Source: Methanobacteriaceae archaeon (GTDB taxonomy: Archaea > Methanobacteriota > Methanobacteria > Methanobacteriales > Methanobacteriaceae). Taken from it: a stretch of DNA of 19,141 nt. Made by a program: the position numbers and the translations under genes. The DNA is taken from NCBI GenBank assembly GCA_003558085.1, contig PWMT01000033.1, forward strand, positions 1 through 19,141, read 5' to 3'. Positions 12,598 to 14,994 of the stretch are shown one piece after another (the stretch's first letter is position 1; the number at the start of each line of letters is the position of its first letter). The notes below the pieces were generated by a model, which ran no database searches, had not been told where the DNA came from, and was given only the letters and a program-made list of their open reading frames with translations.

Positions 12598-13719
12598 TTA
12601 GGCAAACATGTGTTTAGGTTCATTTTTTTCCTTTGTATAGTTTTTAAGTGCATAATCTATATCTTCTTTATCCACAATATGTTTATCCTCGGATATGGCC
12701 TTATGCAAAGCAGTTTTAAGTAATTTTTCTTTAATATCTCTCCCTGACATTCCTTTAGATAATTGAGCTAATTTTAAAGTAGATACTTTAAGTTCTAATG
12801 GCATAGATTCTATATAATTTTGAATCATTTCCTTTCTCTCTGCCTCATCTGGTAATTTGAATTCAATTTCTTCCTCAAATCTGCTTCTAATAGCATAATC
12901 TAAAAGAGATGGATTATTGGTGGCTCCGATAGTAACCACCCCTTGATTTTCATTTATACCGTCCATTTCCGTTAAAACTGCATTGACCACTTCGGACACA
13001 TCGCCCCTTAAAGATTGAAATTTCCGATCCAGTGCAATAGCATCTATCTCATCGATGAATATTACTGAAGGAGATGTTTTAACGGCAATGTCAAATAAAT
13101 CATGTATATGTCTTGAACCATCACCCACATGATCTCCAATTAAACTGGTGGCTTTCACTAGATATAGCGGAACCTTTAATTCGCTAGACAAAGATTTGGC
13201 TAACATAGTTTTTCCGGTACCAGGAGTGCCATAAAATAATATGTTGCGAGGAGCCCAGTCCCTGAAGTGTTCTGGATCCTGCAAATACTTACTGATGATT
13301 TTGCATTTCATTTTAGCATGATCTTGTCCAATCACATCTTTCATTTTAATATTGGTTTCCGTATCTTTGATTTCAGTGATATCCTGATGATCAATTAAAA
13401 TAATAGAAGTGTTTTGGGTTATTTTAGAATTATTTGGATGGGCTTTTATGACTTTAAATGCATAATCAGGTAGAATTTTCTGATCAAATAAAAATGAACC
13501 CTCCACCACATTAAAGCCTTCCCATTGTTCCCTGGCATAAACTTCAAATAAATCTTTGTTCAAGGCCTCGATTTTTGGAGTATCCATTAAATTACAACTA
13601 AAAGGATAACCTATTGGTTGTAATACTACCAACTTAGATTCTTTCAAGGTATCGTTGGTACTGATGGATGATTTATTTTCAGATATATGGGCATCATATA
13701 TTATGTTATTAAATCTCAC
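12598..13719 (-). CDS. AAA+ ATPase, AMA family (Archaeoglobus and methanogens ATPase; COG1223-like)
   Basis: N-terminal LQPIGYPF (AMA GYPL-like), Walker A GTPGTGKT, Walker B IFIDE, and SRH ATNN..LD.AIRSRF. GTG start with AGGTGA RBS at 13730-13725. Confidence 0.88.
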
Positions 13720-13889
13720 TACATCACCTAAGTTAAAAAAAAAGTTGAATCGTCTGTTAATTAGTTATGTGCTGAGTACTTATATGATTTTTGGCCTTTA
13801 TAAAATAGTTTATCGATAATAAACTTATTTTTAATAAGATAAAATTAAGAAAATATGTTTACCTAAATAATAGAGGTAACTGTTTTTAG

Positions 13890-14092
13890 AAAATTAAAAG
13901 TTTCCTAGGGTAAGGGGATACATTTGGCTAAGGTAAGGAGGTAAATAAGCTTACCCTAGGATATGATTGATGTTAACAGTGATTTACAGCTAAAAACCCC
14001 TGGAGAAGATTTTGGCAGAAGAAATTAGCCAGGGGGTAGCTGAAATATATTCCATTATTGATTTTTTTTGGGTGTACCTAAAAATTCTATAG
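13890..14092 (-). ncRNA. Putative two-hairpin small regulatory RNA (ends inferred)
   Basis: 12-bp perfect stem 13903-13914/13950-13961. Second stem 13987-13992/14037-14042 plus 13997-14003/14029-14035. TATA box upstream on -, U-rich tract after the last stem, and no convincing ORF. Confidence 0.55.
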
Positions 14093-14138
14093 AGTATATT
14101 AATACCCCACCCTATATAAAAGTTTAGGTGTACCTAAA
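14067..14138 (-). promoter_or_regulatory. Promoter (TATA TTTTATATA, 14121-14113 on -) flanked by two palindromic operator-like boxes resembling DtxR/MntR sites
   Basis: TTTAGGT-GT-ACCTAAA at 14123-14138 (perfect 7-2-7) and TTTGGGT-GT-ACCTAAA at 14067-14082 (15/16 identical). Confidence 0.7.
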
Positions 14139-14148
14139 ATTATTAAAA

Positions 14149-14994
14149 TCAGATATTAACAATTTCATAAAAACAATTTTTGAGTTTAAGTGCATCCCGA
14201 TCAATAAGAGGAGTTTCACAGATAATTGTGGAACTCCATCCACTCTCCATTAAAATCTGTAAAAGAGGTTTTACTGGAGGCCCGTATTCTTTTTGGGAGA
14301 GTTTATGATGCTTCCTCTCACCAGAACTTCCAAATTCTATACGAGCAAAATGACAATGCAAATGATTAATATCCAGTTCTTGATCCAATTCATCCACTAT
14401 TTTCTGGTAATCTTCCCTGGAATTAATGCTTCCACCAGAACGGGCATGTAAATGAGCAAAATCAATGGTGGGCTGGAAATTTTCAAATGTTTGACAAAGA
14501 TTAATTATTTCTTCTAAGCTTCCAAGTTGAGATTTTTTTCCACTAGTCTCAGGAGAAAAAATAAAGTTTTTAATTCCCTTTTCATTTAATTGTTCTAGAA
14601 TTTGAGCAATAGATTGTTTACATTTTTCCAAAGCTATTTCCGGAGTATATTTAGTGTAGAACCCCGGATGAAAAACAATTCTATAAGCCCCCATCCATTC
14701 TGCTACCTGCGCTGATTGTACTAATCTTTGTATTGATCTATCTATAACCTTAGAATCAGAAGAAGATAAATTCACATAATAAGGAGCATGCATAGAAATT
14801 AAAACCTTATTTTTTTTAGCATTCTCCTGAAGTTCCTGGGCAGGCTTTTTAGAAATTCGAACCCCATAAGTAGCCTGATACTCATAAGCATCTAAACCTT
14901 CTGATGCTAGATAATCACATACTTCTGGCGTTTTGCCTTTATAATCTATAGGATTACCTGCCGGTCCAAATCTAACCTTTTTAGTCATTACCAT
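14149..14994 (-). CDS. Endonuclease IV (AP endonuclease family 2) TIM-barrel protein
   Basis: RFGPAG, SMHAPYYVNL, VFHPG, PETSGK, IDFAHLHAR, LHCHF, ERKH and ICETP metal-ligand motifs. Start could be 14994 or 14988. Confidence 0.9.
   Translation of the reverse strand: MVMTKKVRFGPAGNPIDYKGKTPEVCDYLASEGLDAYEYQATYGVRISKKPAQELQENAKKNKVLISMHAPYYVNLSSSDSKVIDRSIQRLVQSAQVAEWMGAYRIVFHPGFYTKYTPEIALEKCKQSIAQILEQLNEKGIKNFIFSPETSGKKSQLGSLEEIINLCQTFENFQPTIDFAHLHARSGGSINSREDYQKIVDELDQELDINHLHCHFARIEFGSSGERKHHKLSQKEYGPPVKPLLQILMESGWSSTIICETPLIDRDALKLKNCFYEIVNI

Follow-up and report, generated by a model that had tools for sequence, protein, structure and literature searches.

The window analysed here, a 19,141-nt stretch of a Methanobacteriaceae archaeon genome (contig PWMT01000033.1 of assembly GCA_003558085.1), contains a 429-nt intergenic gap that separates an endonuclease IV-like gene from an AAA ATPase gene, both on the minus strand, and that may well house a noncoding RNA gene of its own. 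On the minus strand of this gap there are an operator-like palindrome, a TATA box, two conserved hairpins and a T-rich tract, and the same palindrome stands on the dtxR promoter and upstream of feoB in this genome. The best reading is that of an iron-repressed regulatory RNA, with a logic closest to that of the IdeR-controlled small RNA (sRNA) MrsI. In its full form, namely an independent gene for an RNA of about 200 nt (from ~14089 to ~13888, minus strand) which would be repressed by Fe(II)-DtxR and would act in trans as an iron-sparing RNA, we give this reading about an even chance of being right.

A preliminary description of this DNA had proposed a self-contained transcription unit in the gap, and upon rereading the minus strand over 13600-14400 we found every feature it described in its place. 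The genome under study (G000, a 1.86-Mb assembly, 95.9% complete), in which the promoter and RNA region is present in a single copy, was compared with three congeneric species (G001, G002 and G003). The unit begins with operator 1, recognised by sequence reading as the palindrome TTTAGGTACACCTAAA (14123-14138, minus), which abuts the TATA box TTTTATATA (14113-14121, minus) at the side of its B recognition element (BRE); palindrome and TATA box are kept family-wide as a single string. Archaeal promoter geometry would place the transcription start at 14087-14090 (minus), about 23-26 nt past the TATA box, where the sequence CTATAGA is kept in 4/4 genus members. Operator 2, TTTAGGTACACCCAAA (14067-14082, minus), lies 56 bp past operator 1 and just beyond the predicted start; the second palindrome described earlier is thus present, though imperfect, as it bears one mismatch (CCCAA for CCTAA). 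Hairpin 1 (CAGCUA-C-CCCCUGG paired with CCAGGGG-UUUU-UAGCUG; 13987-14042, minus) was recognised by its fold and its conservation in G001-G003 and consists of a 5' arm (14042-14029), a 25-nt loop (14028-14004) and a 3' arm (14003-13987). Its loop carries the motif UUCUUCUGCCAAA (14011-14023, minus), a candidate seed common to operator-driven RNAs of other genera. Hairpin 2 (13903-13961, minus; from the fold) has a 12-bp stem (13961-13950 with 13914-13903) and a 35-nt loop (13949-13915) with ACCUCCU (13942-13936) and CCUUAGCCAAAUGUAUC, and is followed by the T-rich tract CTTTTAATTTTCT (13888-13900, minus), which reads as a candidate archaeal terminator. The start and the end of the transcript are predicted from the positions of the TATA box and of this T-tract. 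Both loops are pyrimidine-rich (~71-72% each by direct count) and share GCCAAA, exactly as described before. The earlier picture of GC-rich stems on an AT-rich background holds for the stems only, as the RNA as a whole has 38% G+C in comparison to 35.4% for the genome and the enrichment is confined to the stems.

The palindrome is very probably an Fe(II)-DtxR operator, placed on both sides of the TATA box. We predict this because it is present at the dtxR promoter and, family-wide, upstream of feoB. Two copies of the 14-16 bp palindrome TTTAGGTAYACCTAAA precede feoB in G000, and another sits at the promoter of the one DtxR-family gene that is full-length. The exact form TTAGGN4CCTAA occurs at 8 sites in the assembly, while about 2 are expected from its composition. 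Besides the site in this gap, one overlaps the 5' end of dtxR (C44:7801-8577, encoding a 258-aa protein with the Pfam domains Fe_dep_repress, Fe_dep_repr_C and FeoA), two are located upstream of feoB, at 65 and 90 nt, one, visible on two contig ends, is at the promoter of a VTT/DedA-domain gene, and two are of intragenic appearance. In the wider family, 27 genera supplied 30 feoB loci, of which all but one entered the comparison (L088 was dropped, its match having 6 stops); TAGGN4CCTA was present no more than 1.2 kb upstream of feoB in 28/29 loci, against a composition-based prediction of ~0.01-0.02 per locus. At another locus (L033) a double palindrome with 55-bp spacing drives a dtxR gene, and the second palindrome includes the AGGTGA ribosome-binding site of that gene. 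The presence of one operator abutting the TATA box on its BRE side and of another after the predicted start is an arrangement that fits repression.

As for the metal, the G000 repressor is about equally similar to DtxR, IdeR, MntR and ScaR (E 1e-17 to 1e-23). In the alignment, its segment IHNQACKMEH has Cys at the position where the Mn sensors ScaR and SloR carry Glu, and we take this residue to be the counterpart of DtxR C102, the sulfur ligand position typical of iron sensors. The earlier suggestion of an Fe/Mn-type repressor operator can thus be kept as regards the repressor family, given the dtxR and feoB sites, and narrowed to Fe(II) as regards the metal.

A BLAST search with the gap against 201 family genomes revealed that a string of 30-35 nt, comprising the palindrome and the TATA box, recurs in many genera at 85-100% identity; this part corresponds to query positions 5-39, i.e. 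to the promoter. The body of the RNA was matched in the genus alone. Altogether 98/201 genomes match the 266-nt query at E<=0.01, mostly in the same part, and in other genera a second palindrome is often found 54-55 bp downstream of the string.

Some further observations concern the regulon itself. The G000 assembly encodes only two Fe_dep_repr_C proteins. The second of them (225 aa, Fe_dep_repr_C and FeoA; L041:3203-3880, plus strand, contig C66) lies directly 3' of feoB; no N-terminal DNA-binding domain was detected in it, and its coding start contains a 9-nt complement of the loop-1 motif. An exact site and a one-mismatch site 45 bp apart (L042:3700-3755, the same as L043:60-140, at the ends of contigs C170 and C20) are located between the gene for a VTT/DedA-domain membrane protein and that for the DNA polymerase II large subunit, which suggests that the DedA-like gene is part of the iron regulon. 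Scanning G000 for operators with one mismatch gave two more intergenic candidates, on contigs C121 and C154. The latter (L181:880-1260, minus strand; C154:12180-12560) has a TATA box and a one-mismatch palindrome followed by ~350 nt without an open reading frame (ORF), with a long-range stem CAAGUAGGGGG...CCCCCCUACAAG and then ACAACCUCC, and is flanked by the lipid-synthesis genes for phosphatidylserine decarboxylase and CDP-alcohol phosphatidyltransferase; with a fold z of -0.94, it is too weak to be claimed as a further operator-driven unit.

The RNA part of the unit is conserved within the genus in a manner expected of a structured molecule. The region 13880-14095 folds with a minimum free energy (MFE) of -41 kcal/mol, while its shuffled versions reach -31.8 +/- 4.0 (z = -2.33; 5/200 shuffles were as stable), and both hairpins appear in the MFE and in the centroid folds. 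Hairpin 1, as drawn before, is therefore recovered, albeit interrupted by a bulge and an internal loop; the stem of hairpin 2 is indeed perfect, with its 35-nt loop exposing ACCUCCU. The order endonuclease gene - gap - AAA gene is complete in G000, G001 and G002, and in G003 the contig ends within the gap with the endonuclease side visible. The promoter and RNA are syntenic in all three congeners (70-72% identity), and in the four genus members the loops are better conserved than the stems. Of the loop sequences, UUCUUCUGCC(A)AAA of loop 1 and also CAUCAAUC are kept in 4/4 species, one A being deleted in the G002 motif, and CCUUAGCCAAAUGUAUC of loop 2 is kept as well, apart from one point change each in G001 and G003.

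Changes in the stems are compensatory. In hairpin 1, CAGCUA/UAGCUG is replaced by UAGCAA/UUGCUG in the congeners (U-A to A-U, C-G to U-G). In hairpin 2, CCUAGGGUAAG/CUUACCCUAGG of G000 becomes CCUGGGGUGGG/UCUGCCCCGGG with pairing unbroken: at two positions both partners changed (A-U to G-C), and at four a change in one arm only gave a wobble pair (read directly from the alignment rows, as MAFFT shifts the 3' arm by one base). When 11 copies (9 distinct) were aligned by fitting to the model, pairing held in 84.5% of cells, versus 40-73% when the partners are slid by 1-3 columns, and 9 pairs are changed on both sides, a value matched by 0/500 shuffles. G001 has three copies of the RNA in tandem (L003:1073-1633, minus strand), where copies 2 and 3 are chiefly the hairpin-2 module, preceded by a TTTTATACC box that lacks a palindrome; a G003 contig was seen to terminate inside the same tandem repeat.

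The RNA does not belong to any family that we could recognise, in line with the preliminary description. With Rfam 15 in E-value mode over 13500-14400, even at E<=10, the best matches were plant and animal microRNA models with 14-24 bits against thresholds of 48-195, and in gathering mode five related loci gave 0 matches. A covariance model of the window's RNA (R1), run on 151 family genomes, found strong matches in the genus only. The 16 weak matches that we inspected (E 1e-3 to 0.1) were all coding-like DNA with no palindrome, and on 17 of the 45 loci with the promoter string (see below) the model found the RNA in L139 and L144 only. A pattern scan of metagenomes gave 16 loci, 13 of which were chance matches in coding DNA of unrelated organisms, the remaining 3 being near-identical to the known congeners.

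Although the RNA itself was found in the genus only, its promoter is followed by analogous units elsewhere in the family. In other genera the palindrome and TATA string usually has no ORF downstream; instead there is a structured unit ending in a T-run. In species-representative genomes the exact string TTAGGN4CCTAAACTTTTATATA occurs at 46 sites in 45 loci, all but one of which are titled Methanobrevibacter, Methanobacterium, Methanobacteriaceae, Methanobacteriota or Methanovirga; L155, bearing the promoter string and a Methanobrevibacter-type RNA, is titled Bacteroidaceae bacterium and is probably a mis-binned contig. A CTCTTAATT stem lies within 330 nt downstream at 32/46 promoter sites, and 31 of these sequences align (alignment A6) as an RNA of ~140 nt with no ORF and with a T-run terminator. 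This Methanobrevibacter-type RNA (L014:1506-1700, plus strand; L140; L137; and 29 further loci) has no Rfam match and is found in cultured Methanobrevibacter as well (records titled M. intestini WWM1085 and M. filiformis DSM 11501). It consists of a variable 5' hairpin, then an invariant stem CUCUUAAUU/AAUUAAGAG lengthened by covarying pairs (GGGG/CCCC, GAGG/CCUC), a loop UCAACCUCAAUU that is invariant except for one change in 2/31, and an invariant 3' tail UCUUCUGYC (31/31) directly before the terminator. By reading, its invariant loop AACCUCAAUUA is the complement of the RNA's own 5' stem arm, and two alternative folds may therefore be possible. A covariance model of this RNA (R2), run on the same 151 genomes, matched 9/13 genomes of genus g5 and 1/3 of genus g7. 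Further forms exist: units of g6 are longer with the same stem, their motif reading UCUCUGCU; the M. filiformis-titled loci have two copies of the unit; and g17 has two tandem operator-driven units separated by ~540 nt, both of them with two palindromes spaced 55 bp apart. Most of these forms share the pyrimidine motif. The g17 units (L018:1509-2500, plus strand; L020; L036; L016) lie in ~1.8 kb without an ORF of at least 80 aa.

How the window's RNA relates to these units is not a matter of simple membership. Both the window's RNA and the Methanobrevibacter-type RNA have a near-identical palindrome and TATA promoter, UCUUCUGYC and no ORF; UUCUUCUGCC, which here lies in loop 1, is common to them, as is AACCUC, here ACCUC in loop 2. 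More generally, UUCUUCUGYC is common to the window's RNA and the units of other genera, most of which also have CAACCUC. On the other hand, only the Methanobrevibacter-type RNA has the variable 5' hairpin and the invariant long stem CUCUUAAUUG/CAAUUAAGAG, and UCUUCUGYC is located in its single-stranded 3' tail, whereas in the window's RNA it is located in the loop of hairpin 1. Placing the window's RNA within the Methanobrevibacter type was rejected: with filters off, R2 gave it 17.9 bits and E 0.9 (13995-14122), below two unrelated matches in the window. R2 matched in 0/3 congeners; no intergenic CTCTTAATT...AATTAAGAG stem pair was found in G000; and the looser TCTTAATT...AATTAAGA matched there only with arms at least 200 nt apart (contigs C47 and C155). 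We thus treat the operator-driven units as probable lineage-specific RNAs of one regulatory class, for which diverged homologues and replacements would be alike possible.

The gene context raises the question whether the unit is a gene at all, or rather an iron-regulated second promoter and a structured 5' leader of the downstream gene, with hairpins acting in cis on stability, attenuation or processing. The gene upstream of the gap (14149-14994, minus) encodes an AP_endonuc_2, endonuclease IV-like TIM barrel (Pfam PF01261), and the gene downstream (12598-13719, minus) a PRS2-type AAA ATPase (Pfam AAA, PRS2_N and AAA_lid_PRS2_C). In G000, G001 and G002 the unit immediately precedes the AAA gene on the same strand, many analogous units in g5 and g6 are found upstream of argG in the same orientation, and of the T-run after hairpin 2 only CTTTTG/A (T4) is conserved in the congeners, which makes a weak terminator; termination may thus be partial and the transcript may run into the AAA gene. 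However, a TATA-like box belonging to the AAA gene itself, TTTTATAAAGG (13795-13805, minus), lies outside the RNA in a conserved block, together with a 5' region of the gene's own. The block, TTT(T)ATAAA...CCAAAA.CATATA, is present in G000 and G002 and similar in G001, while the ~110 nt between it and hairpin 2 are unalignable among the congeners, alignment returning only at the TATA-like box (query positions 345-427). Moreover, the downstream gene varies by genus (AAA, argG or none). In L014 the unit is flanked by the end of one gene on one side and by a gene of converging orientation on the other, and so cannot be a leader there. The three tandem copies in G001, too, suit an RNA gene better than a leader. 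Taken together, these observations lead us to regard a leader as unlikely.

If the unit is an iron-repressed RNA gene, the following course of events can be proposed. Under iron sufficiency, the operators bracketing the TATA box would be occupied, which would keep out TATA-binding protein and transcription factor B (TBP/TFB), or else RNA polymerase. Iron shortage would allow the RNA to be made alongside feoB and dtxR, with transcription proceeding from ~14089, ~24 nt past the TATA box at the conserved CTATAGA, to the T-tract. The two hairpins would then display their long pyrimidine-rich loops, of which loop 1 (by UUCUUCUGCC) and loop 2 (by ACCUC and CCUUAGCCAAAUGUAUC) may base-pair in trans with translation-initiation regions. 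Such pairing would lower the synthesis of iron-rich proteins, i.e. it would be an iron-sparing response, the concrete candidate targets being the start-codon regions of hdrA (for loop 1) and of an frhA-like NiFe-hydrogenase gene (for loop 2).

It had been proposed before that ACCUCCU in loop 2 acts as an anti-Shine-Dalgarno (anti-SD) sequence. GGAGG precedes 267/1906 and GAGGT 187/1906 gene starts (starts from our own crude ORF calling, with 77% coding density); with ribosome-binding sites of this kind being so common, an ACCUCC loop could touch many mRNAs. This idea did not fare well. The congeners carry AACCUCU in place of ACCUCCU, so that the shared core is only ACCUC (4/4 species), and in RNAduplex comparisons with the 1906 starts the loops had mean energies equal to those of shuffled loops, with the shuffles reaching lower minima. 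The 16S rRNA 3' end, sought for comparison with loop 2, is missing from the assembly. An anti-SD mechanism thus seems weakly possible at best, as ACCUCC lacks conservation in the genus. The better conserved element is a different one, UUCUUCUGCC of loop 1, and this is no anti-SD.

Among the same gene starts, the longest exact complement of loop 1 is the 12-nt UGGCAGAAGAAA, which lies across the start codon of a gene for a 659-aa Fer4/FAD protein that we read as HdrA. The sequence AUGGCAGAAGA(A/G) was found at the hdrA start in 17/18 genomes of 7 genera; the exception is G101, in which hdrA has AUGACAGAAGAAA and the operator-driven unit has UUUCUUCUGUCA. In five genomes of five genera TGGCAGAAGAA occurs at 28 sites, three of which are the RNA genes themselves, and hdrA is the only start-codon site present in 5/5 genomes; an atpD-like gene has such a site in two genomes and an mvhG-like gene in one (names by reading of the N-terminus). 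For the genus-conserved half of loop 2, the longest complement is the 10-nt GAUACAUUUG, covering the spacer and the UUG start of a gene for a 405-aa NiFe-hydrogenase large subunit, which we read as FrhA; this region is identical in the 4 genus members. The candidate pairing segments would thus be UUCUUCUGCC with GGCAGAAGAA (hdrA) and CAAAUGUAUC with GAUACAUUUG (frhA-like). Both candidates stand first in operons for iron-rich enzymes, as expected of targets of an iron-sparing RNA. We nevertheless offer them as hypotheses, as the match lengths are within chance: a 12-nt match was reached by 3/30 shuffles of the 19-nt loop-1 segment, an 11-nt match by 14.5% of 200 shuffles of the 13-nt seed, and a 10-nt match of the frhA kind by 57% of 200 shuffles. 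The hdrA 5' region (ACTTGTACAAGGTGA, L110:2310-2345, minus strand, contig C117 in G000; ACTTGTACAAGGCGA in G101; ACTTGTACAAGGAGA in G139) also contains a perfect palindrome, CTTGTACAAG, which abuts the ribosome-binding site and is kept in 18/18 genomes of 7 genera. It could be an operator of another regulator or a small RNA hairpin.

It may also be that the RNA is real and iron-repressed and yet does not pair with any mRNA, but binds a protein, serves as a sponge or a scaffold, or has its loops recognised by a protein. The loops are conserved beyond what pairing to any single target would need, target enrichment is absent in comparison with shuffles, and the complementarity of AACCUCAAUUA to its own 5' stem arm in the Methanobrevibacter-type RNA suggests alternative intramolecular folds. 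On the other hand, conserved single-stranded pyrimidine-rich segments are the usual signature of a seed, and the shared motif does complement a conserved start-codon region. We deem this explanation improbable, to the same degree as a cis-acting leader.

Several further points weigh against the trans-acting, iron-repressed RNA that we prefer. From the sequencing runs searched (one RNA run with 9% of the sampled words, and one added run) 0 contigs matched the region, which is evidence neither way. Operator 2 of G000 has the mismatched half-site, only T4 of the presumed terminator is conserved, and the metal specificity is deduced from feoB and one residue. The covariation comes from essentially two lineages (G000 versus a tight three-species cluster) and from paralogous copies, and the alignment was fitted to the structure model; with R1 matching strongly in one genus only, the RNA family is also small. 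As for the targets, the pairing energies and the chance frequencies given above count on the same side, the hdrA start region hardly varies, so that the agreement across genera is not independent, and HdrA is an essential part of the core methanogenesis machinery and hence an unusual target for iron sparing.

In another view there is no functional RNA, the DtxR sites are a roadblock or an insulator after the endonuclease gene or else part of a decaying promoter, and the hairpins are neutral or terminate upstream transcription. Such a view would be at ease with the lack of expression support, the degenerate operator 2 in G000 and the modest fold z (-2.33). However, it leaves unexplained why double changes keep the stems and why the loops are conserved while the rest of the gap is unalignable, and in many genera conserved non-coding units stand under this very promoter; we consider it quite improbable. 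As to a small protein gene, the frames that might speak for one (a 21-codon ATG frame over hairpin 1 in G000 only, and 49- and 65-codon frames from loop 1 in G001 and G003 only) differ by species, no frame or start codon is conserved across the genus (TAATTTC in G000/G002 versus TAATGTTC in G001/G003), no SD sequence precedes them and substitutions track base pairing rather than codon periodicity, so that we rejected this reading as extremely improbable.

The preferred reading, a trans-acting RNA repressed by Fe(II)-DtxR, can be extended to the family. One might suppose that lineage-specific RNAs stand family-wide under one Fe(II)-DtxR operator-promoter, that the seed UUCUUCUGYC is kept for masking the hdrA start, and that the second loop of this genus masks the start of the F420-reducing hydrogenase operon. 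We regard this broader model as tentative and rather doubtful. Methanogens have a very high iron demand, and if the model is true, iron availability would directly restrain those enzymes of hydrogenotrophic methanogenesis that cost the most iron, also in Methanobrevibacter of the human gut and the rumen, which gives a testable link between iron supply, HdrA/Frh and methane output in gut, rumen and digesters. The operator-promoter provides a search handle as well, and it has already picked out the ~140-nt Methanobrevibacter RNA.

Repression by archaeal members of the DtxR family has precedents. MDR1 of Archaeoglobus fulgidus blocks polymerase recruitment. The operator found here may already be described for Methanobacteriales in the account of archaeal DtxR regulons by Leyn & Rodionov 2015 (J Bacteriol 197:451). 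MDR1, together with DtxR of Thermococcus kodakarensis and Idr1/Idr2 of Halobacterium, is described as exerting metal-dependent repression through palindromic promoter operators, acting on the repressor's own gene and on iron-uptake genes (PMC3074139). The MDR1 motif given in that source, GTT-N8,9-AAC, differs from the TTAGGN4CCTAA found here (PMC3074139). Our literature search found no archaeal DtxR-type repressor controlling a noncoding RNA, and no iron-responsive sRNA or post-transcriptional iron response for methanogens. If the family-wide model is true, no metal-responsive riboregulator would have been described in Archaea before it.

In Bacteria, the same logic, in which a metal-loaded repressor silences an sRNA that blocks translation of iron-rich proteins, is described for RyhB, PrrF1/PrrF2, FsrA and IsrR. 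C/U-rich single-stranded seeds are common to RyhB, PrrF, FsrA, IsrR and the window's RNA, and the tandem duplication of PrrF1/2 resembles the three-copy array in G001. However, RyhB, PrrF, FsrA and IsrR are controlled by Fur and not by DtxR, some of them depend on Hfq, and their sequences are unrelated to that of the window's RNA. Targets of the RyhB class are for the most part iron proteins that the cell can do without, unlike the candidates here, which are enzymes at the core of methanogenesis. The closest parallel is MrsI (ncRv11846) of mycobacteria, an iron-sparing sRNA with a site for IdeR, itself a DtxR-family protein, near its start site, whose short conserved hairpin-loop seed is described as pairing with iron-protein mRNAs at their 5' ends (PMC6016810). 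The two RNAs have no sequence or structural similarity (no Rfam family matched the window's RNA). MrsI is bacterial, ~100 nt long, with a 6-nt seed and proven targets such as bfrA (PMC6016810), while the window's RNA, known from sequence alone, has an archaeal TATA/BRE promoter with two or three 16-bp palindromes. If our reading is true, a repressor-silenced iron-sparing RNA circuit of the MrsI kind would have arisen in Archaea too, and from unrelated parts.

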